DNA of 64,000 bases from the NCBI GenBank assembly GCA_048213135.1, contig PS015081.1:1-64000 (forward strand), given 5' to 3'. Source of the DNA: Reclinomonas americana ATCC 50394. Its lineage: Eukaryota. A program made the position numbers and the translations under genes. Below, piece by piece: positions 605 to 64,000 of this stretch (positions are counted from its first letter, which is position 1; each line of letters opens with the position of its first letter). The notes beneath the pieces were generated by a model. The model made no database searches. It worked only from the letters and a program-made list of their open reading frames with translations, and was not told the DNA's origin.

Positions 605-1677
605 NNNNNNNNNNNNNNNNNNNNNNNNNNNNNNNNNNNNNNNNNNNNNNNNNNNNNNNNNNNNNNNNNNNNNNNNNNNNNNNNNNNNNNNNNNNNNNNN
701 NNNNNNNNNNNNNNNNNNNNNNNNNNNNNNNNNNNNNNNNNNNNNNNNNNNNNNNNNNNNNNNNNNNNNNNNNNNNNNNNNNNNNNNNNNNNNNNNNNNN
801 NNNNNNNNNNNNNNNNNNNNNNNNNNNNNNNNNNNNNNNNNNNNNNNNNNNNNNNNNNNNNNNNNNNNNNNNNNNNNNNNNNNNNNNNNNNNNNNNNNNN
901 NNNNNNNNNNNNNNNNNNNNNNNNNNNNNNNNNNNNNNNNNNNNNNNNNNNNNNNNNNNNNNNNNNNNNNNNNNNNNNNNNNNNNNNNNNNNNNNNNNNN
1001 NNNNNNNNNNNNNNNNNNNNNNNNNNNNNNNNNNNNNNNNNNNNNNNNNNNNNNNNNNNNNNNNNNNNNNNNNNNNNNNNNNNNNNNNNNNNNNNNNNNN
1101 NNNNNNNNNNNNNNCTCTCTCTCTCTCTCTCCAGGCCCATGCACTGCAGTCATCTCCCTTCCCATTCCCATTCTTCACACATATGCTGCAGTCTTTCTTA
1201 TTCTCTCTGACCTCCTCTCCAAGCAACTCTCTCTCTCTGTGCTTCTACGTGCCTCTCCCTCTCTCTTTGAACCCTTGCAATGCATTCACCCTCCGCTCTT
1301 ATTCTCATGTCTCTCTCCCATCACATTATCTATGCATCCCTGTCTTCATTCCCTCTCATCTCACCCTCCACCCCCTCCCTCCCTCTCCAGCGACGCCGCC
1401 CACCCCTCCCGCTTCGGCTTTGTCGAGTTCTCCGACCCATCCTGCGCGGTCCTTGCCCAGCAGCTCGACGGCGTGACGCTGGGCGGGAAGCGACTGAAGG
1501 TGCAGGCGAGCAAGAGCGCCATTGCCCCGGTCGCAGTTGCGTCTCCTCAGATCCCTGCGCGCATCGTTTACTCGAATCCTTGAGCTGTGCAACCCTCCTT
1601 CCTGTCGCATTCCACTCTCCGTCTCTCATTCTGTCGATCATTTTGTTCTCTCATAGCCACTCACAACATCTCTCTCG

Positions 1678-1718
<41 letters not shown>

Positions 1719-1738
1719 NNNNNNNNNNNNNNNNNNNN

Positions 1739-1778
<40 letters not shown>

Positions 1779-1956
1779 CGAGACAATCACGCAGACGGAG
1801 AGACAAACAATAGACGAAGAGACAGTCTACAGCAAAGACACACAGACACTCGATCAGTGAGAGTGTGAGAGAGAGTGATACACACGCACTGAGAGACAGA
1901 CAGGCCATCGCTGCCTTCTTGATTGTTTGTATGTGCCTCTCTCTCACTCTCTCCCT

Positions 1957-1990
<34 letters not shown>

Positions 1991-4534
1991 TCTCTCTCTC
2001 TCTGACTGCCGGTGTGCCTGTATGCCTGCCTCTCTGTCTGTTCTCGGTCTGCCTCTTAATCTGTCACTCCCTCGGTTCGTTCATCAGCCTGCCATCCTGC
2101 CTGTCAACTGCGACCAATAGAAGTGCTATGCCAGTAAGTGCCGATCTTGACTCCCGTTTCGCAATGCAGATGGCACCACCGCCCATGTACGGCATGCCCA
2201 GACCGCAACAACCGCCATCGCATCGCGACGCGTCCCGTGCTGCCGCCGAAGCAGTCCTCATTCCGCGGACCATTTACGTCTCGCAGATTGATCGACAGGT
2301 CCGGCTGCCTTTCTTCACTTCACGTTTGCACATCACTTCTCACTCTGTCCTCGGCGTTGCAGCTGACCGAGACGCAGCTGAAGGAATTCTTTAGTGTGTG
2401 CGGTGTGGTGACCGAGTGTCGCATGTGTGGCGACATGGATCATCAGACGCGTTTCGCATTTGTCGAGTTTGAGACACCGGAGAAGGCCAAGTCCGCGCTT
2501 CACCTCAACGGTATTCAGCTCGGCACCTCGAAACTCAGGTGAGTTTGGTGACAAATCACTTGTCGCTCTCTCTTTCTCCCAGGTATCCTGTTCTCTTCAT
2601 CATTTCTTCACTCCATGCAGCTTTCTCGTCCCCATTGTGCTCATCTCTCTTCTTTCCCTGCGCATACTCTGTTACTACCAATTCTCTTGCGTTCCTCTCA
2701 CCGTGTTCTTTGTTTGTACTGCAGTTGTGCACATCTCTCTTCTCGTCTAGCCTCTCATCCTCACATGCATCGTGCGACTCTTCTCACCCATTGCTTCCTT
2801 GTGCACATTTTTCGTTCGCTCCTAGGATGAGTTGTGTCCCTCCACTCTCGCGCGTCGTCTCTTTCTCGCTCTCTGTGAATCCCGTCCTCTTTGCTTCCAA
2901 TCTCTCGCTCATCAATATCTCATCCTTCCAGCTCTCATTCGTGCATCTCTTCTCTCCTCTCTCTCTCACACACTCTCTCTCTCTCTTGCCTCTTTCCCTC
3001 CGCTCTCCCCTCCTCCCTGTCCCTCATTTCCCCTTCCACAGCATCGCCCCCTCCAAAAACGCCATCCTCACCTCCGTGTCCTCCCGCCGCGCCATGGAGA
3101 GCCTCCCCGACGAGAAGCGAGCGGCGGTCACACGCACCGTCTACGTCGGCGGTCTCGACTCGGGCATCACCGAGCACGAGCTGGCCGACTTTTTCGTGGC
3201 CAACGCCGGACCCGTCGCCAAGGTTGTCCTGGCCGGCGATCGAGTTGCGTGTGCCCACAGCCTTTCCTCATTATCATTTCCGCTGACCGCACCCCATAGT
3301 ACCACGACACCCGCTTCGGCTTTGTCGAGTTCCAGGACGAGAGAACGGCGGGCGGAGCGTGTCAATTGTCGGGCTCCTCCATTCGCGGTCGACCGATTCG
3401 GTGCGTGTGAACACGGCAGTCTCTCACGTCGCGTCGCAGCATGCACTCACCCTTGATGCCACGCAGTGTGAGCATGTCCAAATCGCCGATTCTCGTCGAC
3501 GGCTCCCAACGCGGCGTCGGTCAAGTGTACTACCCGGAAGGCGCGCCCGCTTACGGTGCTGCGCCGCCACACAATCCCTACGGGTACGCGACACCGCCCA
3601 GCGGAGCAGAGCTGGCCTCCGCCGCCAGCGCCGTGGCCGCGGCGGTGAATGCCAACNNNNNNNNNNNNNNNNNNNNNNNNNNNNNNNNNNNNNNNNNNNN
3701 NNNNNNNNNNNNNNNNNNNNNNNNNNNNNNNNNNNNNNNNNNNNNNNNNNNNNNNNNNNNNNNNNNNNNNNNNNNNNNNNNNNNNNNNNNNNNNNNNNNN
3801 NNNNNNNNNNNNNNNNNNNNNNNNNNNNNNNNNNNNNNNNNNNNNNNNNNNNNNNNNNNNNNNNNNNNNNNNNNNNNNNNNNNNNNNNNNNNNNNNNNNN
3901 NNNNNNNNNNNNNNNNNNNNNNNNNNNNNNNNNNNNNNNNNNNNNNNNNNNNNNNNNNNNNNNNNNNNNNNNNNNNNNNNNNNNNNNNNNNNNNNNNNNN
4001 NNNNNNNNNNNNNNNNNNNNNNNNNNNNNNNNNNNNNNNNNNNNNNNNNNNNNNNNNNNNNNNNNNNNNNNNNNNNNNNNNNNNNNNNNNNNNNNNNNNN
4101 NNNNNNNNNNNNNNNNNNNNNNNNNNNNNNNNNNNNNNNNNNNNNNNNNNNNNNNNNNNNNNNNNNNNNNNNNNNNNNNNNNNNNNNNNNNNNNNNNNNN
4201 NNNNNNNNNNNNNNNNNNNNNNNNNNNNNNNNNNNNNNNNNNNNNNNNNNNNNNNNNNNNNNNNNNNNNNNNNNNNNNNNNNNNNNNNNNNNNNNNNNNN
4301 NNNNNNNNNNNNNNNNNNNNNNNNNNNNNNNNNNNNATGGCGGCGGCGGCGGCGGCGTCCGGCAGCAGCTCCTCCTCGGCAGCAGTGCCCCCGCCGGAAT
4401 CCTCTGCGGCGGCGCCCGGTGTCGATGACGATGAGGATGGAGCGGTGGGAGAAACGTCGGGCAGCAAGCGGCGGCGACACGAGGAAGACGATGAGGAGGA
4501 GGAGCCGCCATTGAAGAGGCCGACACTCGAGTGA
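106..4534 (+). CDS. Triple-RRM RNA-binding protein (CID8-13/SREK1-like RRMs), multi-exon, interrupted by gaps
   Basis: Spliced exons give three RRMs with RNP2/RNP1 motifs: RTVYVGNV...RFGFVEF, RTIYVSQI...RFAFVEF, RTVYVGGL...RFGFVEF. A predicted 15-nt microexon (PAILP) lies near 2088-2102. The acidic/basic tail KRRRH...PPLKRPTLE ends at TGA 4532-4534. Confidence 0.85.
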
Positions 4535-5709
4535 GGTGTGTGTGTGTGTGAAGTCTGCTCTCTTGTCTCTATCTCGCAGCTTGTTTGTTCTCTCTTCTCT
4601 CTCATACAGACTTTCTCAGTTTCGCTCTCAGTGCGCTTTGTCTTTCTCTTCTTATTCTCAAGATTGCCGTGGAGAAACTCTATTGCTTCTTTTTCTTCTT
4701 CTCTCTCTCACACACATACACTCTCTCTGTCTCTCTCACTCTCTCTTAGTCTGCCCGCTACTTACCTCGCTCTCTCACTCTATCTCTTTTCCTTTCTTTC
4801 TCTGGTTTTCTCATCTCCCATCTCTCTCTTGCTCTCACTGTATGCTCTCTCCATTTGTTCCTCATTCTTCCTTCGTCTTTTTCTTCTCCGCCTTCTTCTT
4901 CTTCTCTCTCTCACTTGCTCTCACTCATGTTCTCTCCATTTGTTTCCGCACTCTTTCTTCGTCTTTTTCTTCTCCTCTCTCTCTCTCTCACTTGCTCTCA
5001 CTGTATGTTCTCACAAGTTGTCTCATCACTATTTCTTCGACTTATTTTCTTCTTCGGCTTCTTCTTTCTCTCTCGCACGCACGCTCTCCCTCCTGTCTCG
5101 CATTATGTCCCTGGCAAACTCTCTATGTCTTTCTCTCTCGTCACTCCCACTCAATACTGCTCTCTATATGTTCTCCCCCTTTGTCTTCTCGCTGTCCTTC
5201 TTCTACTACTTCTTCTTCTTCTCAATCTCTCTCTCTCTCTGTTTATCTCTCTTCTCCCTCCCCCCTTTCCGTTCTCCCCCCTTCTCCTTCTCACTTCCCC
5301 CTTCTCCCTCCCAGCAGACCACGGACTGCCCCACCACTGACGGTACGTGTAATCCCCCTCCCCCCACGCGCTTATCTCGTCGAAACAAAACGCACTTGTC
5401 CACTCCCCCCCCCTTCCATATATGTCTCGCTCTGTGTCTGTGCCACGCGACCAGTCCCACCCCACCCAAACAATCTTCCACACGCAACAACTACAACTGA
5501 CGCCACCACACGCAACAACCACCACAACCACTACCACCCATCATCCACCCACCCACCCATCACCCACACCACACGCGTACGTGTATGCATCGTTTGGCGG
5601 TGTGCGTGAGGGACAGTAGAAAAAAACAATCATTTGTATTCAGTGAACAGAAAACCTTGCATGTGCAGCAATCACAGTCTGTTGAAGAAGCGACCTCGCA
5701 CATGCTTTC

Positions 5710-6851
5710 ATGCATCGCATGAACTGTTTGTTGAGTAAGAGAGAATTGTGCATGGTGATCCCTACAGAGTCAGCACCATTTGCATTCAGCGATCATGCCG
5801 AACAGACAACACGAGACTTGTTGCTGGTACTCATTGTTGTGCACGGAACAGGGAAGTTTCTAGCATCATCTCACAGTCGCAGAGAAACCCGGTCTCTTGT
5901 CGCTCATTCTGTTGCAGCCATTCAGTATAGAGTGCCTTGCCTCATTCGCTATCGCAGCGAGATTGGGTACATATTCTTCGACAAAGAGCAGCGTTACTTT
6001 CTTTGCTCAACGCTCTCCTCCCCTTGTCTTCCCACTGGGCCTTTCCTCGAGCTCTTGTCGTCCACTCTTTCCTCTTGTCTTTACTCTAGATCTCTCTTCA
6101 CCTCTTCTGCACCCCTCTCTTCCACCTTCCTCCTGTCTCCCCCATCCCTTCCCCTTCTGTCTCCTCCCCTTTCTCCCCTTTCCTCCTTTTGCTCAACGCT
6201 CTCCCCTTTCGTTACCCCTTGTCTTTCCACTGTGTCTATCCTCGAGCTCTTGTTCTCCTTTCTTTCCTGTCTTTACTTTCTCTTCGCCTCTGCTCCACCG
6301 CCTCTCGTCCTCCTTCCTCCTGTCCCTTCTGTCTTCCCTCTTGCCTTCCCCATTGCAGCCCACTCTCAATTTCTCTCTTTCACCTTGCTCTTTCCCCATG
6401 CTGTCCTCCATTCTTCTTCCCCCTCGCTGCGCGCCTTGCTCTTCTTTCTTGACTTCACGTTCTGTCTCCTTCTGCAGTCTCCCCCTTCTGTCTTCCCACT
6501 GGGCCTTTCCTCGAGCTCTTGTCGTCCTTTCTTTCCTCCTGTCTTTACTTTCTCTTCACCTCTTCTCCACCCCTCTCTTCCACCTTCCTCCGTTCCCCCA
6601 TCTCTTCCCCTTCTGTCTTCTCCCCTTTCTCCCCTTTCCTCCTTTTGCCCAACGCTCTCCCTTTCGTTACCCCTGGACGTCCACCTGTCTTTCCTCTTGT
6701 CTTCCCTCTCTTTGACCACCCCAGCATCCGTCCATCGCCAGTACAAAACGACGAGGGATTGATCGTATCAAGAAACAATCGGGCACGCTCCGAGAAACTG
6801 TTCCATCTCTCACTCCACAACCACCCTGTCAGCAGCTTGCTTCCGACTTGA
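5710..6851 (+). CDS. Possible small spliced orphan gene
   Basis: Two non-repetitive islands (about 5640-5991 and 6742-6851) flank a CT-rich repeat and join in phase (...IGYIFFDKEQ|LQNDEGLIVSRNNRARSEKLFHLSL...*). No recognisable domain; the start is uncertain. Confidence 0.25.
5996..6720. repeat. Degenerate pyrimidine-rich long-unit repeat
   Basis: Recurrent blocks such as ctttgctcaacgctctcc, tcttcccactgggcctttcctcgagctcttgtcgtcc and tgtctttacttt. Confidence 0.7.
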
Positions 6852-7382
6852 CCCTTTTGCATCTTCAACACGACTTCCGTCTCACTCGCTACCTTACTTC
6901 ACTTGTCTCTCTCCCGCTCTTCCCTTCCCCCTCCCCTTCCCTCTCCCCCTCCCCTTCCCTCTCCCCCTCCCCCTTCTCCCTTCTCCCCTCCCCTTCCCCC
7001 CCATCCTATTCCATTAACACATTCATTGTTCTTCTCAAAATTATTTTCCCGTCAAATTCCCCCCATCTCTCCCCCTTTCACCCCCTTNNNNNNNNNNNNN
7101 NNNNNNNNNNNNNNNNNNNNNNNNNNNNNNNNNNNNNNNNNNNNNNNNNNNNNNNNNNNNNNNNNNNNNNNNNNNNNNNNNNNNNNNNNNNNNNNNNNNN
7201 NNNNNNNNNNNNNNNNNNNNNNNNNNNNNNNNNNNNNNNNNNNNNNNNNNNNNNNNNNNNNNNNNNNNNNNNNNNNNNNNNNNNNNNNNNNNNNNNNNNN
7301 NNNNNNNNNNNNNNNNNNNNNNNNNNNNNNNNNNNNNNNNNNNNNNNNNNNNNNNNNNNNNNNNNNNNNNNNNNNNNNNNNN

Positions 7383-10300
7383 TCGTGGGGCTCGCGGAGG
7401 AGGAGGAGCGCGCGCGGCAGCAGGCGGTGGCGGTGCGACGGCGACCGTCGGCTCGTCGACATCCACCGTCTCCAGCCCCAACACTGTGGGGTCGTCGGGG
7501 GAGACTGTCGACGACGACGACGTCGTGGGAGGAGGCATCGGCGCACCACCACCACCACCATTCACACCGCGGCGCAAGTGTTGGAGGATAATCGACGGCT
7601 CGGCGCCCGTGTGCGTCGCCAGGTCGCGGGCGATGCGCTCCACGTCGGCGACCGACAGTGAAATCGCCGCACCTCCTTGGTGATCTTCGGCAGTGGCGAC
7701 AGTGGTAACAGCTGGTGCTGGTGGCGGTGCTGGTGGTGGTGCCGCAGGACGCAAGAATGGGTGCTCCAGCAGGTCACCCGTCAGTGGTCTCCGTGTCGGA
7801 TCGCGTTGCAGGCAACTGTCGACACAGTATGAGTGAGTGATAGCACCATGCAAGCGTCTTCACGAAAGAGCACCCACCGCTCCAGCACGTCCTTGAGATC
7901 GGGATTGTTGCAGTCGGGAATTGTGATTTTCAGGTTGGGATTGGAGAGCATCTGTAGTTTTTGCACAATCGACAAGTGGTGCAGCGGTGGACGACCAAAC
8001 ACCATCTGGTACAGAATGCAGCCCATGGACCAAATGTCGGAGGCTCGGCCGAGCTGTGTGTGCGTCACTCGCGAGTCAGAAAAAACACAACATCTTCAGC
8101 GACAAGGGAAAATCACCGACCTTCATGCACGGGCCCTGACCGCGTCCCTTTGCCGTGTCGACAAAGGCCTCGGGCGACATGTAGTTCAGCGTGCCGACCT
8201 GTGTATCGCGCATAATGTTCGTGGTGTCGCCCTGGATGGCCTTGGCGATGCCAAAGTCGATGAGCTTGACCTTGCCCTTGACGAGCATGAAATTGGCCGG
8301 CTTCAAGTCGCCGTGCACAATGCCACGCTCGTGAATCGACTGCACGGCCTTGAGCATGCCGTGCCAGAATGAACGCAGAATGGTGCCATCGAGGCCGCTC
8401 TCCTGCTCCTCGTGCAAGCGGTGGTTCAGGTCGATTTCACCGCACTCCATCACCTGGCAAAGAAGATGGCGTGTTCAGCACAGTGTAGATAATGGACTGA
8501 TGGTTGCGGTGACTGCAACAAACCATGTACAGCACTTTCTGCTCATAGTTGACCTCCGAGTCAATGAGTTGCACGACAAATTTGAGGCCGTGCAGACTCT
8601 GCAGCAACGCAATCTCGTTGACAAACGAGGCGATCGTATCCTCGTCCAGGCCGTTGAGGGAGACCTTCTTGAGCGCGTAGATTTCGTAGCTGTCGCTCAG
8701 CACCTGGAACACCTTGGAGCTCCCGCCACGTCCAATCATCTTCAGCTTGCGATAGGGGACTCCATTCACAGTGACCATGTTCTCGCCGTCGAATGCTGCC
8801 ACCGATTTGGAGGGTGCCGCTTGTGGTTTGGCGGCCTGCTGCTGCGTGCGGGTGAGAATCACCAAAAAGCATTGCACTGAAGAGGCTATACAAACCTTGT
8901 TGCTGCTCGACGGAGTTGCGCGCGGCTGCTGCTGCGGTTGCGGCGGCGGCTGTGCTGCTGGTGTGGGCACGCTGGCGCGGAAGAGCACCTTCCTCGGCGG
9001 CGACGAAGAAGGTGCGGCCGGCTTGGGCGTCTCCGCCACTGGCCGCACAGGTGCTAGTACGACTGGCGCAGGAGCGACAAACACAGGCGGAGGTGGCGCC
9101 GCTGCTGGCTGTGGCGGCAGTTGTACTGGCTGCGCAGGCTGGACGACCACAGTCGGCGCATCATCCAACGACGACGACGGCAATGACTTCTCCGGCTCTT
9201 TCCCGACTGTGGGCTTGACCGTCGGCACCACCACAGTCGCCTCGTCGTCGTCGCCGTCGACGGGCTCCGCAGTGGCCGCCGGCGTCACGCGCTTGGCCGA
9301 CCCGAGGCTGGCCAGCAGGCCACCGCGCGCCCGCTTCTGTGCCGCCGCCGTCCGGCTGGCAGCGCCAGTGGGTCGCGAGAACACCACGGTCGAGTCGCCT
9401 TCTACCGGTGCCGCAGTTGCTGTAGCAGCGGGTGGCGGTGGTGCAGTGGCTCGTGGTCGCGGTGGTCCCATGGGTGGCGGCTTGGCAAACACTACTGCGG
9501 GAGCCGGTGGAGGTATGACGGCAGTCGGCTCGTCGGCGTCCGCAAACACGGCCACAGCAGCAGCCGGAGGAGTCGGGGTCACCACCTGCTTCGGGGTTCG
9601 TGTCACCACTGTCGGTTCGTCGTCGTCGTCGACATGCGCGGCGGGTGTGGTGACGGTGGTCGTGGTGGTGGTGGCTGCGCCGGAGAGTGATTTTGGTGTT
9701 GTGTTGAAGGAGATGACGGTCGGCTCCTCGCTCATCGAAGCATCCCGAGATGGCGTAGCGAGACCGCCGGCCACCGTGGGCGTGGACATGAGGCCCGGCA
9801 TCGGCGATACCAGCGGTGTCATCTGGAACGGTGCCGGCACGTCGGCGTCTGCCGCCGGAGTCTGTAGATCCTCCGGCAGACCGCAAATGGTGGTGTCGTC
9901 TACGGTGGCGTCAATGGCCGAGGACGACGAGGTGCGCGAAGAGGAGCAGGTGGAGATTGATGTGGCGCTGGGGTCGTCAGCAAGACGTGCCAGCACTTCC
10001 TCGGCCTCCGATTCGGTGAGACCGTGGCCCTTGCGGAACTGCTTGGTCCATTTCTCCAGTCGGCCTGGCAAGGGGGGCATGATGAGACTTTTGGAAATTA
10101 GGTGGGCGAGTGGGAGGGGGGAGAGTGAGGGAGAACCATTGTCACGCTCAAACGAGCCCCACTCGTTGAAAAAATGAGTCGAATGCCGTCCCACGCCCGA
10201 CAGGAACATGGCCTCGAATGAATCGTGACCGGCGTCGTAGCTGTTGTGGTGTAAGAATGGCGAGTGTGGACAGCAAGACAGATGCACAAAAGAGACGCGC

Positions 10301-11585
10301 CTTGAGTGTGCCGTCAGTCGTGCATTCAGAATGCGCGCCGTGATGTAGTCGTCGTGACTGCGCAGTGTGCGATCGGCGTCTTCCAGCTTGCGCAGAGTCT
10401 CCATCGAGTTCTTGAAGAAGATACGCAGATGATGTGCATTCTCGCGCGAGTAGTGGTCGTAGGCGGTCTGCATAGTGGGATGAGCACACAGACACAAAGC
10501 CATTCGCAGACAAGGGCAGGCACTTTCACACTCATTCACTCATTCACTTGCTGGCGTATTCACTTGCTCACTTACGGACTCAATTCGATCGTTTTTTTCT
10601 ATCTCACTCAATTGCTCACCACACGCGGTTCTCTCTCATTGCCTCTATTTCTCTCTTTCTCTGCGCACACTCGCTCGCCCACTTACGTACTCACTGCATG
10701 CACACTTCTTTTCTCTCTCTCTCACTGCACTTACAAATACACGGTGTCTCTCACTCTCATATACAAAGCCACGCCCTCACTCACGTACTCACTGCAATCA
10801 CTTTCTTTTCTATCTCACTCAATTGCTCACCACACGCAGTTCTCTCTCTTTGCCTCTATTTCTCTCTTTCTCTGCGCACACCCACTAACACTCACACTCA
10901 CTGCCTCACTCGCTCACTCACTCACTCACTCACTCACTCACTCGCGTACTCTCCTTTTCTCTCTCACTCAATTGCTCACTCACTCGTGTCATCCCTGCCT
11001 CATTCACTCAACTCACTCACACGTGGTTTTCTTTCTCTCTCTCTCTGACACACACGCTCACGCTCACATGCTCACTTGCTCTCCTTTTCTCTCTCACACT
11101 CACTCGCTCACTCACGTACTCCCTTCATGCACTCCTCTTTTCTCTCTCACTCATTTAGTCACTCACTCACTTCGTCTCCTTATTCATCGCGCTCACGAAG
11201 ACATATTTTTCTCTCGCACGCTCACTCCACGTCCTCACACTCTCACTTGGCATACCCTCACTCTCCTTTTCTCTCTCACTCTTTTACTCACCCGTTCACT
11301 TCGTCTCTCGCTCACTCACTACACTTACTAATTCACGGTTCTCTCTCTTCCTCTCTCACACGCAGCCACACAGACATCCTCACTAGTCACCACTGGCCTT
11401 CTCTTCTTCTCTTTCACTCGCACTCTCTCTCTCTCTTCTCTTCACTCCCGCTTCACACACATACCTGCAACACAGCACGCCACGCCGCAAGGTCGTTGGC
11501 CTCGCGCGCCACTCGATACTGTTCTCGCATGTGCGAGAGGCCGACAAGCTTCAGCAATTCCATGCCACTCGACTTGCGCTTTTGC
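7383..11585 (-). CDS. MPS1: MPS1/TTK-family spindle checkpoint kinase with N-terminal TPR (Mad3/Bub1-like) region; both ends fall in gaps
   Basis: Kinase motifs typical of Mps1: [87 protein letters not shown]. Exons join in phase. A long Pro/Ala/Thr linker precedes the kinase. Confidence 0.92.
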
Positions 11586-52465: not shown

Positions 52466-55400
52466 TCACACGGAGCGACCGCGCACCGCCACCTTGGCCA
52501 GCAGGTCGAGGCAGGTGTTCTTCAGCGCCGCCGCGTGCTCCTCACTGTTGGAAATGTGAAGCAGCGCGTCCAGCAACGTGCTCTCGTGTGCCGCCAGAAT
52601 GTCGCTGTTCGAGAGACACCCGAGAGTGAGAAAGCGAGACCACCGCTGGACAACTAACCGCAGACACAAACCGTTGACGCTTGTCCCAGGCCAGCGCATT
52701 CAACATCTCCACACATGCACCATACAAATCCCACCGAATCTGGTACAGCTCCTCCGTGATGTTGGCGGCCATGGCGTCGCCAGTGGGTGACATTGGTGAC
52801 ATGGCCGAGTCGGCGGCGGCGGCGGCAGCAGCAGCAGCAGTCGCAGCCGGGACATCAGTGTCGGTGCCACTGGCAGCGGCCTCGGCCGCCTCCAATCGTC
52901 GACTTTGGCGCAGCTCACGAATCCACGCCTCCTGCTTCCACGCCATCAGCTTCTTGTCGGCGTCGACCAGCGACAGTGACGGTGGCTTGGCAAGAATCTG
53001 CAGTGCCGCCTGCACACAGCCGGTAACCGCCGCTGCAGGCACATGTGTGGGGTAGCCGCGACGTGGCTGGCACGGGATCTCCCACTCAAAGTCACTCTCC
53101 TGCGGTCCTGGTGTTGACGAGCGCGAAAGTTGCGACTGCGACTGCGACTGGGATTGAGATTGAGACGCGTCAAAGTCGCCCTCCATGGCCATGTCCGCGT
53201 CATCTGCAGAGGCCGCAGGTACTGGCGTGGACGGAGGCGGCATTGCCGCGGCCGAGTCCTCGCTCATCTCTGACAGCTGTCCCGACGAGGCCACAGATGG
53301 CGGCATGCTGGACGCCGATGCAGATGCCGGTGCCGGTGGTGGGGGCGGTGGCGGTGGTGGTGGTGGCGGTGGCTTGCTCATGCGCATTCTGACAAACGCC
53401 TCGATGCACTTGGCGCACGAGACGGCGCACTCGACCAGGTTGATTTCGTGGTGCGGGTGATCCGGATCACGTGGATGTATTCCATCGCCCTGCCCCAGTG
53501 CGAGCATGAGTGTTAGAGACAGGGTGAAACGGAGGGGAAAGTGAAGGCGCTCACCGTGAGAATTTCGGCAAGAGTGTCCACCAGCAAGTCGAACACACGC
53601 GGCTGCACTGCCCATCCACTGTTTTCCACCACCTGGCGCAAGGCACGTTGATGCGCATCCCAATGCTTGTCAAGAAGCAGAGTGAGAGCCTGCGTGAGCG
53701 GAAAGCATCAATAATCAGCGAAGGAGAACGAGGAGTCAGTGCGACAGATTCCCTAGCACGCAACCCAAGTGGCGGCGGCCAGCACCAGCAGGCTCGAGTG
53801 GCGGCGAATGACATGGCACAGCTCCTGTGCCAGCAGGCCTGCAAAGTCGGTCGACAAGAGACTCGCTTGCCTCGACGATGGTCGGCGCTGACGGTCATGC
53901 TGCGGTTGCTCCACTTCCACCGATACGACATTGCAGACTAGGTGCAAGGCCTGTCGCACATGTCGCGCCTCCACCACGCGCATATGTCGGTTGCCGCGGC
54001 AGGACAGACGCAAGACAGCCACAATGAGTTGTTGCACACGCGGATTGGTCGCAAAAGCACGCGCGTTGGCCACTTGGAACGACAATCGCGACAGCGTCTC
54101 CAACGATACAGTCAGCGCTTCGCGTGACACCTCCAGCTCCTCGATCGGTAGCGGATACTCATACGACACCCCGTTGTACACCTGCAATACCACGGGTGAG
54201 CAGCACGCACGGTGAATACGCGAGATGGAGAGAGACAGGGTGCCGCGACGCAACATCGGCGTACAGGTCATCCTCAGCGGGGAGAAACGCTCGGCCGAAA
54301 GGATTCGAGTCGGCGCGTGCACGCTTCACACCCGGTGCCGCGATTGCCTCTTGGCGATCCTCGTCATCTTCGTCGTCGTACTCATCGTCTGCGCCACCAA
54401 AGAATGCATCCTCGAGTTTTCGCAGATGCTCCCGACCCTCGTCGGCAATCGCAGTGGGAATACGCGGTGACTCGGCCACTGCGAGGACAGATTTCCGATT
54501 GGCACATGATGCGCAGACGCGACATACCAAGCTCGCTCTCACGCTCCCCGTACCGGTAAAGACAAACGCGGGGTCGTTGAGCTCCAACAGGTAGTGCAGC
54601 GATTTGAGGCCCCAACGCACTTGCTCGGCCATGCCGCACTCGAGCGAGCAGCGCACACGTCGAACAAGCGCCTCCGAGATGGTCTCTGTGCCGCCTACGT
54701 GAGATGCAAGGCGACCATGCTGGGTACACACAACATCGCGACCGCAACTGTGGGTCGATTCGTGCTGCTGTTGTGCAGCGCGCACGGCGGCAATGGCGTT
54801 TTGCGGTCGGGGAACAGACGAGAGTCGGTAGTCTGCTCAGCAATTTCTCTTCAGGAACCACTGTCGGTCTCGCAGATCGCGGCCGGGAAACAACGCACCT
54901 TGCATCTGGGAGAGTCCGGCTGGCGTCAAGTTGAGCTTGCGTGCCGGTCGGAACCGATACGGGTGCTGGAAGTCCCACAGATTTTGCAAGTCGGCGATAC
55001 TCGGCTGCGACGGCGCACCGACCGGCTTCTCCACCGGCAACGACAAGCGGTAGGCGCGTCGAAGCTCAGGTGGGGCCGATGGTCCTGGGTCGGGCGGCGG
55101 CTGCGCGGGGCGCTCAGTCGGCGGGAGAGCGCCAGTGACGCCCTGTTGCGGAGCCGGCAGCGCCGCCTGCATGGCGTCGTAGCTGCGCGACACGCGATGA
55201 TGAGAGGACAAACAATTAACAGCCTCACGGTTCTATCTCACTTACTTGGTATAGTACGGCATCGGCACCTTGGCTGGATCGGCCGGGCTCAGCATGGTCT
55301 CCACCGTCGGTCCCGAGCGCTCCATCCCATCCGCACCCTCCTCACTGCGCCGACGCGCTCTCCGCGACGAATAATCGAATGCCGTATCCTGCGCCGCACG

Positions 55401-56154
55401 CACCGAGCTCAGCCGCAACGGGCGCGAGCTCCCACCACCAGCAGCCGGCGGTGGCGCCATTCCAATCGGCGGCGGCAAGCCAAATGAGCGGAACGAGTCA
55501 CGGAATGACATGCCACCTCCCGCACCACCGCCAAAGCCCACAGCCGACGGGCCTCCAGTCGCCGGCCCGCCAGTCAGCGGGTCGCCGGCCACCTGCTTTG
55601 GTCGCCGACCACCACGACCGCGACCAGTGCCTGTGTCGAGCGGCTGCTGCGTCGGCACCAGCTCACGATTCCACCGAAAGCGCTCCTCCAGTGGCAACAG
55701 GAAGCGCTCATACGTGCGGCGCAACACAAACGACGCCGAGGTGATGGTCTTTGGGAGGTGGAAGGCACGTGCCACCTCTTGCCACACTTTGCGATTGATC
55801 ACCTGTTGTGTGGAGGAGGAAGTGAGAGAGAGTGAGAGAGGGGAGCGCGCCAAAAAATGCATGTCAATCAATCACAATGCACCTCCTCCAGTCCACCTCG
55901 CGAGTTGACCTCGCGCCACAGCACATACAAGTCGACTTCGCGCCCGCCTAGTGTGGGCGCACGCGCAGGCTCCACATTGTAGGCCTCCAACAGTGCGCGA
56001 TACACCTGTGTGTGTGTGCGTGTGAGTGACAGGTGACAAGAGAGAGTGTGCGTGAGAGAGAATAACGCACAGTTTCAAAGAGAGTGCGATCGGCTTGCAA
56101 GTCCGACCATGTGGTCGAGGAGTACGGCGCAAGAGAGCCTTTCCACTCCAACAT
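52466..56154 (-). CDS. ARID domain protein with BAF250/ARM-like C-terminus (ARID1/SWI1-like SWI/SNF subunit)
   Basis: ARID PTLGGREVDLYVLWREVNSRGGLEE|VINRKVWQEVA...TSASFVLRRTYERFLLPLE. RVRCSLECGMAEQVRWGLKSLHYLL resembles the ARID1 SLKSGL...WAL motif. Confidence 0.82.
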
Positions 56155-56186
56155 CACGAAAGACAACTCTCAAGTGAAATTTCTTT

Positions 56187-57662
56187 TCATTCAATATGCT
56201 GCTCGGCGAGCTTGACCACGCGCACTCGCGGTCTCTTGGTCTTGGTCACCAGCAGCACAATAGAGGCCGTGGCCGTCAACGCAAACGACACCAACGTGAG
56301 GAAGAATCCGTAGCCGAATTGCGACGGACCGCCGACCAATTGCAGGTAGGTGTTGTTGCAGGGAATGCTGTGCGCAAAGACCGCCCAGTAGGTGACAAAG
56401 GTGCCGAGGAGGAAGAGGCCGCCGACTGCGCCGAGGATCTTGCAGACTCGCATCAGGGGCACGGATCTGATGAAGAGGGGGGGGAAGGGAAGGGGAAAGA
56501 CGGCAGTCAGTAGGCTGGTGGCAGAACAACACCAGCTGCATGTCTCGCACGTGGTGGCGTCCCTGATTAACTGCGAATTGTGCCTCCCTCTGCTACCCCA
56601 GAGACTGCTCAAGTACAACAACTTGTGTGTCAGTCCTTGCCTCTCCTTGTGGCCTTCATCGGCGAACTTCTCGAGTCGCAACTGCCTCCTGCCAGCTGTG
56701 TCGCTGCTTGTGTTTCCTCCTGCCTTCCATGCCACAGCTATCTCACTGCTTGCTGCTGAGTTGTGCTACCCTCCGAGTCACTGCTTGTCTTGCCACCAGC
56801 TGCTTCAATCCTTTTCTCTCCTTCTGCCCTCCGAATCGCACCTGTCTCACCGCTCTGCTTGTCTCTGAGTTGTACCCTGAGAGACTGCTCGGCAGCAACT
56901 TGGTCTCGTTCTTCGTCTCTCCTTCTGCCCTCCGAATCGTAGTTGTCTCACTGCTTGTCTGAGTCGCGCCTCTTCCGTCTGCTCTCAGAGACTGCTCTAC
57001 AGCAACTTGGTCTCGTTCTTCGTCTCTCCTTCTGCCCTCCGAATCGCAGTTCTTCTCACCGCCCTGCTTGTCTCTGAATTGTGCTTCCCTTCTGCCAGAG
57101 ACTGCCTGCCTTACCACCAGCTGTCTCGACCCTTGTCTCTCCGAGTCGCAGTTGTCTCTTGCCTGTTTTATCGCTGACTGTCTCTGAGTCGCGCCTCTCC
57201 CTTCTGCCCTCGACAGCACCTGTCTCCCTCCTCCCTTCTTCCTCTCTCCCCTTCCTCAACTTGGACTTTGGATGCGGGAATCCCGTCAAGTCTCGCGACA
57301 TGTGCGCCGCCGCAATGACACACGTGACACAGCCGGCGGCGGTGACCACAGTGGCCATGAGCGCCAGGGCCAAACACAGATTGTTGCTGTGATACCACAC
57401 TTTCCACGCAGTGCAGAGGCCCGTGCGTTCACGCATCTGCTCTATCCAGTTGAGACAGCCAATGGACTCACAGATGTTGATCAGAGAGACCTGCGTGTGT
57501 GTGTGCGCTCAGTCAACACACTGACTCACTCACATCTCTCTCTCCCATTCACTCAACTGTCTGTTCTCTTGAGACTGCCCAGGGCGAGGCGAGACCAAAC
57601 GACTCGAGAATGGTCGACATGCAGAAGAAGGCCGCACAGAGGATGAGCTGTGCGGCTGTCAT
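56187..57662 (-). CDS. Amastin/claudin-like four-TM protein, 3 exons
   Basis: Four hydrophobic segments, LASPW after TM1, Cys-containing first loop, and C...QFGYGFFLTLVSFAL before TM4. Confidence 0.65.
56470..57230. repeat. Degenerate intronic repeat array
   Basis: Recurrent gagactgctc...cagcaacttggtctcgttcttcgtctctccttctgccctccgaatcg blocks. Confidence 0.7.
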
Positions 57663-57761: not shown

Positions 57762-60700
57762 TCACTGGTCGTCGTCTGAGTCCTGCAGCGTGAATATAGA
57801 GGAGCTCTTCTTGGAGGCGCTCGACGGGGCTGCGGAACGGGCAGGCGCAAACGGAGCGTCGACTATGCACAAGAATAGCAAGGGTCAGATTGATCGGCTG
57901 TCGTCCATTGGAGTGCGTGGAACTGTGTCACGCAACTGTCGATGGAGGAGTCTGAAAAGTCGGCGGCGAAGACGGGGCCTGAGGAGGGCGCCACGCTGAA
58001 GGGGTCTGGCATGCTGACTGGCACACGGGCGGCCACTGGAGCTCGCGGCTGCAACGTTCGTGAGTTGTGAGCCGGATGAACTCATCTGTGCACACGAGAG
58101 GGAGTGGAGTGACTCACCGGTGGCAGCTGGATCTCAATCGGCGAGCCCGGCTGCGTGTGGCTCATGCAGTGAGACAATGAGATGTGACACTTCACACACA
58201 CGAACAACTCACCTGCATTGTCGGTGCCGGCTGACTCACCATGGTGGGCACCATGACGGCCACCGGCGGCTGCGCCAACACATGCATGGCCGACAAGCCT
58301 GAACTCGCACTGCCATCGGTGGACACGCGTCCTTCACCGGCAGCGGCAACGGCGGCGGCCTGTGAGTCAAAAATAATACATGAGAAACACAAGGTTTCTC
58401 GCGCGATTCCTGTGGACTGCGACGCACGTGCACGCCGGATCCACTGGCGCCGTCGGCGTCCTGGAATGGCGACAGCCGGAGGGTGTGCGTCTGCGAACAA
58501 ACGTGCCAAATCAGCAACAACCTCTCCTTCCCCCGCCAGCACGTTCACACACCACTGTCGAGTGCCTGTCGGAAAGCTCCAGTCCGGCGGCTGCGGCGAG
58601 ACGCTGGTATTCTTGCATGAATGCTTCGCCGGCCTCCACCATGGCGCCGTGCGTGTGGAATCGCTTGAGCACATCGAGCACATTTGCGTGGATCTTTTCG
58701 GCGTACAGCATGCGGAAGGCTGCGCGAAGTCGAGGGTCAGTCACACACCACACCTGGAAGCAAGCATATAGCAAATCTGGCGGACTCAACTGTCTTCGGA
58801 GAGCACGGACCGGAGCACACGGAAGGCATGCACATGGTACCCGGGATAGTCGCGGTATCGGCGAACGCCCTTGGCCAGCACCTCGATGCAGTCTTTGGTC
58901 ATCATGCTGGCCAGCGTCGTCGCTGCATGAACATCACGACACGCGCACTTTGTGAGGCGGAGCGGCGACAGCAATGAACGCACATCTCACACTAACCGTC
59001 GAGATTGGCCAGCCGTGAGAGCAGCTTGGCGCCGACCACGTGCAGCTTGAGATAGTTCTGAATCCGTGTAAGCACCTCGACCACGGTTGACACAATGCGC
59101 TCGCCATCCAGCGGCACCATGACCACCTTGACTGCACACGGAAAAGGAAGCAAGCACATAATCAGAAAACCAGTCGAGTGGGAGTGAGTGCGACGAACGG
59201 GGTGGGAGACTCACTTTGACGCGGCACCAAGAAGTTGAGCAGGTCGAATGCATTGATGAGCAGTGACACGTTACTTGAGTGTCGTGTCATGCTCTCCTCG
59301 ATCAGCTCCACAACACCGTGTTGCAACAGCATGTCGGTGTTGCGATCTGCATGTACAGCGCACAGTGAGCAGCGAGCGATGGAGTTGGGGTGCCAGCGAC
59401 TACGACGCAACTCGTGGCGTTGGCCAGTGCAATCATGGCTCCAAAGGCGTTCACATGCAGCATCGACAACTCGGGGTAGCCACGCACGCCCTCGACGAGC
59501 GCCAGCAAAATGGCATTCTCAATGTCGGTGGGGAACCGACCTGAGCACAGATCCGTAAGAGATGGACGCAGTAAGGAAACCGCGGTGAAAGCGCACCTCC
59601 ATTCAACGCCGCAATGCCGAGCACCGCAAATGCTGAAGTGAGGATTTCGTAGTCGTCGGGGAACACGCGGAACGAGTTGGCGATTGCGTCGAGTCCATTA
59701 TCGCGTTGTGCCAAGCGGATCGCGATCGGTGCTACGCATCAAGGTAAGATTGCATCCGGCATGGGTACAAGCAGACACAAGCGACACGCACTGTTGCGTA
59801 CGGCCAGACTGGCGAGTGCGGCATTCGCGCTTCGCAGCAGGTCGGCATTGACCGATCGCACACCGTCCTCTTGCGTGTGGCGGAACATTTCGGCAGCTTG
59901 TGTGAAGCGGCGCATGCGGTCGACAATGAATCGCACACAGTTCTCCTTGACTCCCTGCTGCTCCGGTTCGCCTGCGCAACAAAATGAAACAAAGTGAGAA
60001 TCAACGCAGAGCGAGTGGCAGTGAGAACTGCGACGCACGCACCATCGCCGGTGAATGGCAGCTGCCGAATCACGTCGAAAGCAATGATGAGCAGATTGAC
60101 GGTGTCGGGGAACTTGGAGCACGTCTCCAGCATGCAGTACAGTGCACCGCGTCGCAGCAGCACTTGCGGTGCGCCCTCTGATACAAAAACGCGAACAGAG
60201 TGTGAGAATCATGTGTTAGGGAAGGGTGATTCACCTGCAGTGGCAGAGCGCAACTCCTGTCACACAGACGCTGTACTTGGGCCACGGCGGCCGTAGCCTC
60301 GTCCGCCAATCGACAGGCCGCCACTCGTCGCAACAAATCGTCGACTGGACTCTCGTCCGACCACAACACTGTGCGCACCACATGTGAATCAGACGGGAGA
60401 GAAAAGAGAAACGCGACGTTTATGACAACAACAACAACAACGAACAGTTGGAGGACATGACCGACTCCCAGTAGTGCGCCATCTATGAAGGTTCCCTCGT
60501 CAGCTACGACCGAGAAAGGAGAGGACGCACGAGCAGTGCCGACAGACCTCGCGTTCGTGATGCACATTGGCTTCCACGAACGAGGCCAACGCCGAGGTAA
60601 TGTCGGCCACGCGCATCTTCTCGAATCTGTCGAGCTCCGGCGCAATGCTGGTGCGCACCTGATCCACTCGCTCACGCGCCGTGTTCACTTGGTTCGCCAG

Positions 60701-62427
60701 CTAAGGTGCCCACACATAAGTCACCTGCGCTTATTATTGAGAAGAGATGGCAGTGACAGACCTTGTTAATGTCGGCATCCAGCCGGGTGACGGTCTTGCT
60801 GCCGGGTGCGGCCGCCGTCGCCAAGCCATCGCGCTTGACGTTCTTTTCTTGCAGCCGACGGCTGTCGAGGTCCACTTCGATCTGCATCTCCTCCGCGCGC
60901 TTCAGGTACAACTGTGCGCGCCCTTCAAAGTGAGTATCCCACGGTCGTGGATGCAAATGCAGCATGGCACATACCGCTGCCGCCTTGGCACTGCGCGACG
61001 CAAAGTCCATGTAGTCCAGCAGAGTCTCCTCCTCAAAGGCCTGCGACAAGGTGTGAGGACGCGGGTCGGACACTCCCACTCGACGACACGCAGCGGCGCA
61101 CCATGTTCATCTCGCGGTCACCCCACGTGGTGCACATGATTGCCAGGTCGCGCATGGCCAGAGCAATACGACCGTTGCCCTCGTTCGTGGACGGTGGTGC
61201 GAAACGAATGCCAGCCATTTCGCGGTTGGCCAGCTGTCGACACTCACCCAGTCAGCTTTCACGAATAAAACAGCATCAATAGAAGCAGAGAGCGCAACTC
61301 CTGAAAAGTGCTCGCCGATCTGAGTGACGGTCTGCCCGAGAGCTGTGCGTTGTCGACAGCAGTAAGGATCTCTCACCAAAAACCCACCTCAATCACAGTC
61401 GGCACTCACCCTTGCGAGTGTGCGTGTATTCGCGAGCCGCATCGACTGAACGTGAGTAGGCCGACTGCAGCTTGAGCAGGTTGTCACGGAACGCAGCCTG
61501 CAGTGGAGAGTGTGAGCGCGGCAGTCAACATTCCCACCACACTTTGCATCCCGCAACATTGGAGGCCGCCAACTCCTTCTCCTCCTTGGACTTGCGACGG
61601 AAAAAGTTGCGCAGCGAGCTCATGATGGAGTCCTTCAGCGACTTGCGGTACACCTTGACTTCCTCCACCGACAGGGCACAAATGTCCTCGTATTCCTGCG
61701 CACGTACGAGAGCGAATGAGCGATTGCATGTGTACGAGTCAAGGCGATCGACGCACCTTGTCCCAGGCGCTGAGGAACTTCAAAAAGTACTTGGAGCGAC
61801 ACAGTTCGGGAATGGCGGCGACCTTGGAGAGGAACAGCTGCAGCGCACGAGTGCGGTACGAGTCAAAGTCGCGCACACTCAGTTGTTCTGTCGATGGCGG
61901 GCACGGATGAGTGCTGAGCGGGTGAACGCACACACAAGAGCAGACACACACACACCAAAGATATCCGAGTCCGGCAGCGGCGGCACAATGATGTGCACGT
62001 GCAGCTCGACCAGCGTGTCGTACACTGAAAAGCAGTCAGACACAACACTCTTGACAAAACAAAGACGACAAGTCGCCTGCAACGCACGCCAACGAAAGTC
62101 GCTGAAGCGGCGGAACACAGTGAACTCCTTCAGAATGCCAAACGCATCCGAGTTGGTCTGCGCACATGTGTGAGCGACTGACAACTCCTTCCTACGCAGA
62201 CAGCGACTGACCTTGGTCTTCACATTGTAGTACCACGTGTTGGAGAACGAGTTGAACTCGTGCTCAATGTTGAACTCAAAGTACACCTCCTCGGGCTGGG
62301 GTGTGCGAGGGATGAGTGAGAGAGAGAGTGATGCGAATCCATTGTGTGACTGACCGGGTCCTCATCGCTGATTGCTGAGCCTCCATGCACTCCGGATCCT
62401 GTTGCGGCACTCTACGCACACATGCAA

Positions 62428-62458
<31 letters not shown>

Positions 62459-64000
62459 CAAGCAAGCGCGGGAGATGAGCGCAATGCGAGCTCATGTCTG
62501 TTTTCGTCACAGCACACAGAAAGGGAGACACACGAGCAGTCACAGGCAATGCCTGTCTCTCACTCACATACACACACGCACGCCTGTGGAGAGAGAGAGA
62601 GACAGACACAGAGACAAGTGACACATTGAGTGCGACTGATGCACACCCCACGCACCATGATGTCGTGAGATGACTTGCACTCTCACTCACTCGCGCGATA
62701 TAGCACACAACGCTCTTTCTCTCTTTTCCTCAAAGAAGCAAGATCGTCTTCGTCGCTGTGGGACAACTCGTATTCACTGTCGACTTTGCACGGAACACAA
62801 AAAGCACAGCGACTGGGCATCCTCGCAGATGAAGCAGCGAAGGACTCGCAGCGGGAGTGGCTCTCCCTCGTCGACATCGTCGTCTTCGCGAGCGTGCAAT
62901 TCGGCGAGAGCTTCGAGAGCTTGACGTATGCAGGCCAGTTCGCGATTCAGCAGGCGCAGTGCACTCCATGGACCTGCCAGTCGATGTTAACGCTATGGCA
63001 ACTACCCAGTACTGCGTCGCCGTTGCGTACCTGTTGGCCACGTGAGGAAAGAGCCGGCGACGTCGGTCGTCTCCTTGTACGAATACAGCGAAGGTGACCC
63101 GGGCTTCATCACAAACATCGTGCGATGGTACGTCCACGCGACGACCCGCAACGTGCTCACTAGTGTGGCGCTTCTGGCGTGCCACACGCGGATGGATCCA
63201 TCTGCGCGCAAGCGTTCACTCGTCAACGCAAAGCGGCAGAGCAGGCTTCCCTCACCCCGCACTCACCAAAGGACGAGCTGACAAAGAAGGCGCTGTCGTT
63301 CGTGAACGCCACATCCGCGACGCCCAGCTCGTGCTGACTGGTAGACGCCAGCAGGCGTACGTCGCTCTCCAGCAACGCCCACACAAACAAGTGACCGGTG
63401 GGGTGACCGGTCACCAGCAGAGTCTCGTCGGGCGAGCATGCAGCGCATGTCAGCGAGTACTGCATGGGCGGCGACTGCCACGACTGCAGCGTCTGCGTAT
63501 CCCACCACTCCACGTCCGACGCCCGCATCACCAGCAGCAGCTGTCGATCCCCGTTCTCCAGCACCCTCAGAGGCGTGGCCGCCGTCGACTTCGGAAACAC
63601 ATTCAAACACTGCCCATCATCCGCACGCCACATGCGCACCGCCTCAGTGTGGGCGCTCGTGAACAGCAACTGCCCGTCTCTCGACGCCACCATACTCGTC
63701 ACCAGTCGCGTGTGCCCCTCCCGCTGCCACACCACACGCCGAGTCGCCACCTCCCACATAATCACCTGTCCAGGCACCTGTCGCCCATACCTGTACTGCA
63801 CGCCATCCGCACTGCACAAGAGCGTTCCACCGCGCAGAAACAGCATGGCTGTCACGGGGTTGAGGTGCGCTTGCAACTCATGAACTGTGCGCATCTCCTC
63901 CTCCTCCTCCTTCTCCTCTATGAGATACACTGTGCGATCGCCAGCACCTATCGCGACCCACGTGTCGCACACTGCCATGGAGCACACACCGTTCACTGTC
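57762..64000 (-). CDS. WD40 - PX - BAR - ARM-repeat fusion protein (sorting-nexin-like); 5' end beyond the window
   Basis: WD40 repeats (AHLNPVTAM, GHTRLVTSM, FFVSSSF|DGSIRVW). PX VFRRFSDFRW|LYDTL...IIVPPLP...RTRALQLFLSKVAAIPEL...FLKFL. BAR end ELDRFEKMRVADITSALASFVEANVHHERE|MAHYWE. ARM-like helical repeats follow to TGA 57762. Confidence 0.75.

Follow-up and report, generated by a model that had tools for sequence, protein, structure and literature searches.

A frequent class of predicted introns starting GTTGCG, apparently displaced by one base from the ordinary 5′ splice site, in a 64-kb window of the Reclinomonas americana genome

The stretch analysed here, hereafter the window, spans positions 1 to 64,000 of contig PS015081.1 in the Reclinomonas americana ATCC 50394 assembly GCA_048213135.1, a eukaryotic chromosome piece with about 58-60% GC in its gene regions and 2529 N in nine runs. 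Its genes are intron-rich, with up to 25 predicted introns, and the introns are short, about 65 nt. Gene identities, taken from Pfam matches on single open frames and exons, comprise a two-RRM gene (1990-3656, +), an Mps1-like protein kinase (7437-10479, −), a large Laminin_G_3 protein (36254-45330, −), a DUF1295 membrane protein (45095-46694, +), a gene with a PAS_8 match (47582-50730, +), an ARID protein (51866-56522, −), a gene with a borderline PX match (57765-62485, −) and a WD40 protein (63041-63930, −). The subject of this report is a class of 5′ splice sites (donors) in these genes that read GTTGCG, which an earlier inspection of the sequence, here called the original prediction, had proposed to be a second donor register in routine use, compensating for exons that do not end in G.

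Two kinds of GT-AG intron start are found among the predicted introns of the window. Ordinary donors read G/GTG(C/A/T)G(T/C), or more loosely GTNNG with G at +5, where a slash outside brackets marks the exon–intron border; the second kind, hereafter class B, reads (A/T)/GTTG(C/A)G(T/C) and is mostly GTTGCGT, so that it resembles the main donor G/GTG(C/A)G(T/C) placed one base further downstream. GTTGCG is present, on the proper strand, at all 22 positions listed in the original prediction, and the tally of exon-end (−1) bases given for them is exact (A 12, T 8, C 1 and G 1). The 21 introns listed with both ends are 56-78 nt long, each with CAG or TAG at its 3′ end. The analysis extended the list by five members, three with GTTGCG (54748-54686, 41306-41244 and 36402-36344) and two with GTTGAG (58790-58720 and 40049-39980), and these, like the listed introns, all start with GT and end with CAG or TAG.

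Introns were predicted with a small Viterbi gene parser whose codon log-odds were trained on the window itself. In the first pass (the blind parse), the intron model consisted of GT, YAG, a YTNAY branch motif and length, with no view of positions +3 to +6 or of the exon bases, and it gave 102 donors in 14 good gene models, the sense gene spans of which hold 2697 GT sites. The second pass (the refined parse) used a two-class donor matrix on +3 to +8 only and gave 114 introns. Class B was defined as donors GTTGCG or GTTGAG and the ordinary class as donors with G at +5 (58 in the blind set and 79 in the refined one), leaving 14 of the 114 refined introns in neither class. The sample is the one 64-kb window. 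Intron 45817-45899 (+) of the DUF1295 gene is confirmed to the residue by homologues, and a 6-nt move of one donor in the refined pass gave back to the PAS gene its histidine-kinase H-box SNMSHEIRTPLN, a motif seen in the translation and not matched by Pfam; these two independent signs suggest that the parser works. The ordinary set surely includes some false introns, which would weaken, and not create, the contrast in exon-end bases described below. Other exons were of less use for placing junctions: no homologue was found among longer proteins for the ARID-gene exon 53765-54181, nor for the WD40 exon at a threshold of 1e-10, which is too strict, a metagenome scan with the histidine-kinase exon gave no match, and the PX exon had four weak matches, unusable for junctions, in the representatives library.

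Two introns of these genes illustrate how donors behave in the window. The H-box of the PAS/histidine-kinase gene is split by a phase-1 intron, 50481-50548 (+), with the donor GTACGT, which the blind parse had placed 6 nt off and in phase, an example of how hand-built models are blurred here by rival GTs in the same phase. In the DUF1295 gene the second intron, 46349-46416 (+), is bounded by homologues to within two residues, and its donor, either G/GTCATAG or a GTTCCG 6 nt later, fits neither class; some real donors therefore lie far from any consensus.

The window contains 64 copies of GTTGCG, compared with 51.5 ± 7.3 in shuffled sequences, 6 of 100 of which reach 64; the bare motif count is thus within chance, and the question becomes whether the word is used as a donor. 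In the blind parse GTTGCG is both the commonest and the most enriched donor hexamer, with 14 of the 102 donors as against 30 of the 2697 GT sites (binomial p = 1e-11), followed by GTGAGT with 9 and GTGCGT with 7. Fourteen of its 30 sense occurrences are used as donors, in contrast to one of 43 for GTTGC followed by A, C or T (Fisher p = 4e-6), and since these one-letter neighbours go practically unused, rare codons at the intron start cannot explain the result. The share of sense occurrences used, 0.47, is the highest of the common donor hexamers (0.43 for GTGAGT and 0.18 for GTGCGT). In the refined parse the order is GTTGCG 19, GTGCGT 16, GTGAGT 13, GTGCGC 7 and GTTGAG 2. Class B as a whole, spread over about ten predicted genes, has 16 members among the 102 introns of the blind parse and 21 among the 114 of the refined one.

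Whether splicing at these sites maintains the coding frame was assessed by comparing the best frame in the 120 nt upstream with that in the 120 nt downstream, the expected difference being the intron length modulo three. As the original prediction had held, splicing would keep the frame at most sites: 16 of the 19 informative candidates, those with a length that is not a multiple of three, shift the frame as predicted (p = 7e-6). Of the three exceptions, those at 38035 and 36402 behave as read-through, and one is uninformative, its upstream exon having 14 codons. The remaining seven of the 26 candidates are divisible by three in length, and retention would introduce stops in four of them and none in three. 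As for the list itself, 12 of its 21 full introns are predicted exactly by the blind parse and 16 by the refined one, which also uses the donors at 1536, 14560 and 35689 but not those at 38035, 44894 and 60254. Judged from these sequence statistics, class B very probably consists of real introns that form a distinct and frequent class, about 16-18% of the introns in the window, and in all likelihood it supplies more than half of those whose upstream exon ends in A.

On the plus strand, the best-supported members lie in the two-RRM and PAS/histidine-kinase genes. Intron 3244-3299 (cga/GTTGCGT, 56 nt), inside the second RRM of the former, is found by both parses with a consistent frame shift; the RRM_1 match covers profile positions 1-29 and stops five residues before the donor, then resumes with positions 39-53 three residues after the acceptor, and the spliced product reads ...VVLAGDR/YHDTRFGFVEF. 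In the PAS/histidine-kinase gene, 49678-49733 (gca/GTTGCGT) is exact in both parses, with large frame margins and no in-phase rival GT within 30 nt, and 48234-48294 (aga/GTTGCGT) is exact in the refined parse, has a consistent frame shift and would bring in two stops if retained; at this site the blind parse kept the acceptor but took as donor a GTGACG that lies 21 nt upstream in the same phase. Three plus-strand sites are weaker. The candidate 14560-14629 (gca/GTTGCGT) is consistent in frame by small margins, and the refined parse uses its donor with an acceptor at 14644 in a weak model (score 29.1). The 78-nt candidate 15431-15508 (aat/GTTGCGC), in frame and free of stops if retained, is exact in the refined parse, again in a weak model (15.3), and lacks Pfam support. 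The GTTGCG at 1536-1541, following an exon that encodes the C-terminal part of an RRM, is joined to an acceptor at 1656 in a low-scoring refined model (21.3). That RRM half (RRM_1 profile positions 36-70) occupies 1380-1535 (+) behind a 510-base N run and ends directly at the 1536 GTTGCG; it lies a short way upstream of the two-RRM gene, and may either supply that gene with a third RRM or belong to a neighbour.

On the minus strand, three members precede the laminin gene in coordinate order: 18819-18889 (gta/GTTGCGT, 71 nt), exact in the refined parse and consistent in frame, for which the blind parse took an in-phase rival GTAGTT 3 nt upstream; 19455-19522 (aca/GTTGCGA, 68 nt), exact in both parses with a consistent frame shift; and 20721-20779 (gtt/GTTGCGT, 59 nt), likewise exact in both and frame-shifting as expected, with one stop if retained. 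The candidate 35630-35689 (ctc/GTTGCGT) is ambiguous, being in frame, a multiple of three in length and without a stop if retained, and the refined parse joins its donor to an acceptor at 35606. Intron 36344-36402 (caa/GTTGCGC, 59 nt), from beyond the list, appears in the refined parse only, and as the frame test favours read-through it is weak. The listed 37978-38035 is unsupported: neither parse uses it, and the best frame is the same on both sides despite its 58 nt, as expected of read-through.

In the large LamG-domain gene, 39571-39628 (caa/GTTGCGC, 58 nt) is exact in both parses, with a consistent frame shift and one stop if retained, and the unlisted 39980-40049 (cga/GTTGAGT, 70 nt) is exact in both with a consistent frame shift. 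Two class B introns fall inside one Laminin_G_3 domain, the ends of which match on the outer exons: the unlisted 41244-41306 (aat/GTTGCGG, 63 nt), exact in both parses, frame-keeping, with one stop if retained and flanked by exons that match profile positions 12-38 and 126-143, and 41674-41731 (ctt/GTTGCGT, 58 nt), exact in both parses, with a consistent frame shift and no in-phase rival GT within 30 nt. Further along, 42472-42539 (cgt/GTTGCGT, 68 nt) is exact in the refined parse, shifts the frame as expected, has one stop if retained and no in-phase rival GT. The listed 44832-44894 (63 nt) is unsupported, being in frame, absent from both parses, free of stops if retained and indistinguishable from exon by sequence.

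The ARID gene carries three members that are exact in both parses: 53690-53764 (tgg/GTTGCGT, 75 nt), the sole class B intron with G at −1, with two stops if retained; 54182-54254 (gat/GTTGCGT, 73 nt), with a consistent frame shift and large margins; and the unlisted 54686-54748 (aca/GTTGCGG, 63 nt), with one stop if retained and an upstream exon of just 27 codons, too short for the frame test to be informative. Intron 57863-57936 (aca/GTTGCGT, 74 nt) of the PX-domain gene is exact in both parses, with a consistent frame shift and no in-phase rival GT. Also exact in both are the unlisted 58720-58790 (aca/GTTGAGT, 71 nt; consistent frame shift, two stops if retained), 59347-59411 (cga/GTTGCGT, 65 nt; largest frame margins, no in-phase rival GT), 61234-61298 (gga/GTTGCGC, 65 nt; two stops if retained, upstream exon of 14 codons, frame test uninformative) and 61498-61557 (aat/GTTGCGG, 60 nt; frame kept, one stop if retained). 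The listed 60178-60254 is ambiguous, both parses preferring an in-phase GTCTGT 15 nt upstream with the same acceptor, and the frame fits either donor.

The two classes differ most clearly at the last exon base. G occupies −1 in 41 of the 58 ordinary donors of the blind set and in one of 25 class B donors (Fisher p = 6e-9), and in the refined parse in 52 of 79 and one of 21, respectively (p = 4e-7). The −1 bases of class B are A in 14, T in 9, C in 1 and G in 1 of 25 introns. Seen from the exon end in the refined parse, class B makes up 13 of the 23 introns that follow A, 6 of the 19 that follow T, 1 of the 10 that follow C and 1 of the 62 that follow G. Of 24 class B introns, 19 have T or C at +7, as ordinary donors have at +6. 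When GTT is followed by the core GCG it is used in 14 of 30 cases, by GAG in 2 of 5, by GTG in 0 of 16 and by CTG in 0 of 13; the extra T is tolerated only before GCG and GAG, the two commonest ordinary cores. A CTNAC-like motif lies near the 3′ end of nearly all listed introns, a CTNAY branch motif occurs in 20 of 21 class B and 58 of 79 ordinary introns (p = 0.04), and the branch A of class B lies a median of 18.5 nt from the 3′ end. The two classes are alike in intron length and phase.

Two other origins for the class were considered and rejected. Mean local alignment scores are 7.8 within class B, 7.7 within the ordinary class and 7.7 between classes; class B introns are thus no more alike than others and are not copies of an introner-like mobile intron. 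The minor-spliceosome (U12-type) donor consensus is (A/G)TATCCTT, and the class B donors are GTTGCG or GTTGAG. Separately, two predicted introns on the minus strand, 43629-43696 and 38573-38652, start G/GTTTGCG, with G at −1 and at +5; they were counted as ordinary and can alternatively be read as a two-base displacement of GTGCG.

Elsewhere in the window, gene 16357-18045 (+) has a U-box-like end, seen as a motif in the translation and without a Pfam match, and a cold-shock-like reading of 15323-15661 is unsupported by Pfam. On ten further exons adjoining class B introns, Pfam gave just Fn3_assoc, one PAS_8 and one weak match. At Rfam gathering scores the window contains no structured RNA gene and no snRNA gene, and at E values up to 1 the sole matches are two weak ones to snoRNAs and low-complexity microRNA look-alikes near the N run at 1665-1792. 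Tracts of low complexity, rich in C and T on the plus strand, extend over 1-8000, 10500-13000 and 24000-33000, with GC skew reaching −0.33 and AT skew −0.42; they hold dinucleotide repeats and most N runs, and give rise to the spurious microRNA-family matches at 1665-1792 and to long fake open frames (SLSLSL...). The predicted gene 30200-32400 (+) has internally repeated exons (ELADLVANVQQVFSAPDFQLQVEMA... and ELEEFIATVEATFDTPAFKRQVDVA...) and two 47-nt predicted introns, 31473-31519 and 31809-31855, with identical first nine bases and near-identical 3′ ends, and the repeats and the similar introns point to recent tandem duplication. The DUF1295 protein has 104 protein matches, none from the source organism itself and the best of them 61% identical; the best named ones are from land plants and a pedinophyte green alga, and in a quick tree of this single gene it groups with Pedinophyceae sp. 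YPF-701 (support 0.83), the one hint of affinity, possibly green algal, that the window gives.

How such donors might be read was explored through their pairing with the 5′ end of U1, for which the standard sequence AUACUUACCUG, also written ACUUACCU and printed as the former in PMC4856993 and PMC9311317, was assumed; the U1 of the organism may differ. With that end, ordinary donors make on average 7.3 pairs in the canonical register and 4.6 in the shifted one, whereas class B makes 6.6 pairs in the register shifted by +1 and 4.4 in the canonical one. The reading we tentatively prefer, which we regard as quite possible though still short of probable, is that class B donors are read by standard U1 in this shifted register. 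On this view the second of the two GT-AG intron starts would be the same signal one base further in, with the exon-end G missing. U1 with a standard 5′ end would bind class B one position along, with intron G+1 pairing C9 of U1 in place of the exon G−1, U+3 pairing A7, G+4 pairing psi6, G+6 pairing C4 and U+7 pairing A3, and with U+2 mismatched. Because the shifted reading puts G+1 on C9, the exon G would be dispensable. Cleavage would still fall before GU, since U6 and U5 fix the cut site later. At the U6 stage G+6 and U+7 would pair with ACA in the ACAGAGA box, with either of the two U residues bulged out; as G+6 and U+7 take the places of +5 and +6 opposite U6, a one-base bulge at the catalytic stage would be expected in any model. 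Of the routine second register in the original prediction, the distinct, frequent class holds up, and the larger number of shifted pairs agrees with it, while shifted U1 binding is a proposal drawn from pairing; the proposed compensation for a non-G exon end corresponds to a correlation with the exon-end base and goes no further than that correlation, and the variant snRNAs or altered proofreading factors that it suggested are conjectural.

Several results weigh against shifted reading by standard U1. Although the class was said to be depleted of G at −1, and is so relative to ordinary donors, it is not significantly below the non-donor background: copies of xGTTGCG that are not donors have G at −1 in 6 of 40 cases, compared with 1 of 24 for donors (p = 0.24). 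Class B donors show a modest excess of A at −1 (13 of 24 versus 10 of 40 non-donors, p = 0.03), and A is what the shifted model predicts, through pairing with U10, yet T in 9 and C in 1 of 25 go unexplained. Log-likelihoods of the class B −1 bases are −33.6 for the shifted model, −34.7 for a uniform one and −51.7 for a bulge with ordinary exon pairing, so that the shifted model fits no better than uniform, and the −1 bases of class B are distributed unlike the bases at −2 of ordinary donors (chi-square p = 0.0009). The predicted U1 duplexes are weak, with a mean of −2.05 kcal/mol as against −5.84 for ordinary donors, although GTTGCG is the word most often used where it occurs, and the ratio of GCG to GAG cores is 19:2 in class B and 24:15 in ordinary donors (p = 0.02), although GAG pairs better with U1. 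To these are added the failure of the three listed sites at 38035, 44894 and 60254, and the fact that the gene models are self-built and trained on the same 64 kb.

The weak duplexes, the GCG preference, the T at −1, the near-absence of C and the uniform-like fit keep a lineage-specific or second U1 in play. In such a case U1, or a second U1 variant, would have a changed 5′ end that pairs directly with (A/U)GUUGCGU in the normal register, and the narrow specificity of the class, with GTTGCG used in nearly half of its occurrences and its neighbours almost never, would agree with this, as would the poor pairing with standard U1 in any register and the choice of GCG over the better-pairing GAG. 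Co-evolved U1 ends have precedents in Entamoeba and Mastigamoeba (bioRxiv 10.1101/2022.06.08.495308). However, the same source gives standard U1 ends for Mamiellales and Thecamonas, both with donors similar to the ordinary ones of the window; a pair of coexisting classes would call for two types of U1; and the window, having no snRNA gene, offers nothing direct for a changed U1. We consider this explanation unlikely, if worth keeping in view.

Donor choice might instead depend little on U1: introns would be recognised mostly from their strong branch site and 3′ end and at later stages, for instance by U6 or a protein with a preference for UGCG, and GTTGCG would be no more than a favoured word among loose donors. 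The 14 of 114 refined introns that fit neither class, the non-consensus GTCATA or GTTCCG at 46349/46355 in the DUF1295 gene, where the exons are supported by homologues, the near-universal CTNAY motif of class B and a −1 profile that no pairing model fits well all agree with loose donor recognition. Against it, the ordinary class is U1-like, with G at −1 in 66-71%, G at +5, T at +6 and 7.3 pairs, and the parallel GCG and GAG cores of the two classes point to one reader in two registers; on balance it is distinctly unlikely.

A bulge is the next candidate: standard U1 would pair in the canonical register, with the U at +2 or +3 looped out. GTTGCGT is indeed GTGCGT plus one T, the T or C at +7 falls where such a bulge would put it, a bulge at +2/+3 is among the registers listed for human sites, 68 of which are predicted to use it (PMC4856993), and a bulge would, by the argument given above, be needed at the U6 stage anyway. 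The exon pairing would then be kept, however, so that the −1 base would face C9 of U1 and G would be expected there, and G is found in one of 25 introns, compared with 41 of 58 for ordinary donors; together with the log-likelihood of −51.7, as against −33.6 to −34.7 for the alternatives, this makes a canonical-register bulge very unlikely. That class B is unreal, a by-product of hand-built and self-trained models in GC-rich sequence with easy open frames, is least likely of all, since, even with a chance-level motif count, seven of 26 candidates divisible by three (three of them without a stop) and three failed sites, the enrichment comes from a parse blind to +3 to +6, 16 of 19 candidates pass the frame test, the one-letter neighbours are unused, the RRM profile continues across 3244-3299, and, elsewhere, the refined parse restored the H-box SNMSHEIRTPLN and homologues confirm 45817-45899.

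Beyond the pairing scheme a broader reading is possible, though we hold it with somewhat less confidence than the scheme itself: about a fifth of introns might be defined one base off the cleavage register, as a regular, genome-wide class tied to exon ends in A or T, either with standard U1 working in two registers or with a second U1 type, so that the positions defined by U1 and by U6 would be uncoupled on a genomic scale. Were this true, the genome would supply a large natural sample for studying how U1 binding at one position is squared with cutting by U6 and U5 at another, and could serve to probe the contribution of the exon-end base and the adaptation of snRNAs or of proteins such as U1C and LUC7. 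Gene finders with a single donor matrix would, in that event, misplace or miss about one-fifth of the introns.

Lineage-specific donor words are known from other systems. Diplonemid donors read G/GTATG, with a branch motif in few introns (PMC12621601), which speaks against a diplonemid origin of the window. In Entamoeba a U1 5′ end ACAAAC accompanies GUUUGU donors and in Mastigamoeba an end ACGUAC accompanies GUGCGC donors, whereas Mamiellales, with GYGCGY donors, and Thecamonas, with C at +4, have standard U1 ends (Roy & Bowser, bioRxiv 10.1101/2022.06.08.495308); Mastigamoeba, with on average 3.4 introns to a gene, introns averaging 137 bp and reportedly no eukaryotic histidine kinases (PMC8136499), is an unlikely source of the window. 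Class B shares with Entamoeba and Mastigamoeba a lineage-specific donor word that pairs poorly with standard U1, but these two each have a single altered U1 and a single consensus, while two donor classes coexist here. The ordinary class, in turn, recalls Ostreococcus lucimarinus, in which introns outside chromosome 2 have GTGCGTG donors and ACTGAC branch sites (Irimia & Roy 2008, PMC2483917): here it reads G/GTGCG(T/C), often followed by G, with CTGAC or CTCAC branch sites and CAG ends. That alga differs in having one strict donor in an intron-poor, very compact genome, as opposed to the intron-rich genes of the window, and no mention of a GTTGCG class was found in the available portion of PMC2483917. 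In the literature searched, we came across neither a GTTGCG donor class nor any genome in which shifted donors are common.

The closest parallels are mammalian. A shifted register has been shown experimentally in human cells (PMC4856993), the mammalian sites having been described by Roca & Krainer in 2009 (cited there as ref. 10), and a register with a bulge at +2/+3 by Roca et al. in 2012 (Table 3 of the same paper); together, the validated non-canonical registers account for 1.5% of 201,541 human sites. The human +2/+3 bulge resembles class B in having one extra U right after GU relative to the consensus, but it keeps exon pairing and is expected to have G at −1, which only one of 25 class B introns has. 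Mammalian shifted sites share more with it, namely a GU followed by the signal one base late, more U1 pairs in the shifted register, G+1 in place of G−1 and a cut at the GU; they differ in their core, UAAGU, whereas here it is UGCGU or UGAGU, and here the class makes up about 16-18% of predicted introns. The type of mechanism is therefore already known, and its scale, the core sequence and the link to the exon end would be new: human shifted or bulged sites, at about 1.5%, were proven one minigene at a time, and a single, sharply defined shifted word in one intron in five would stand in contrast to them.

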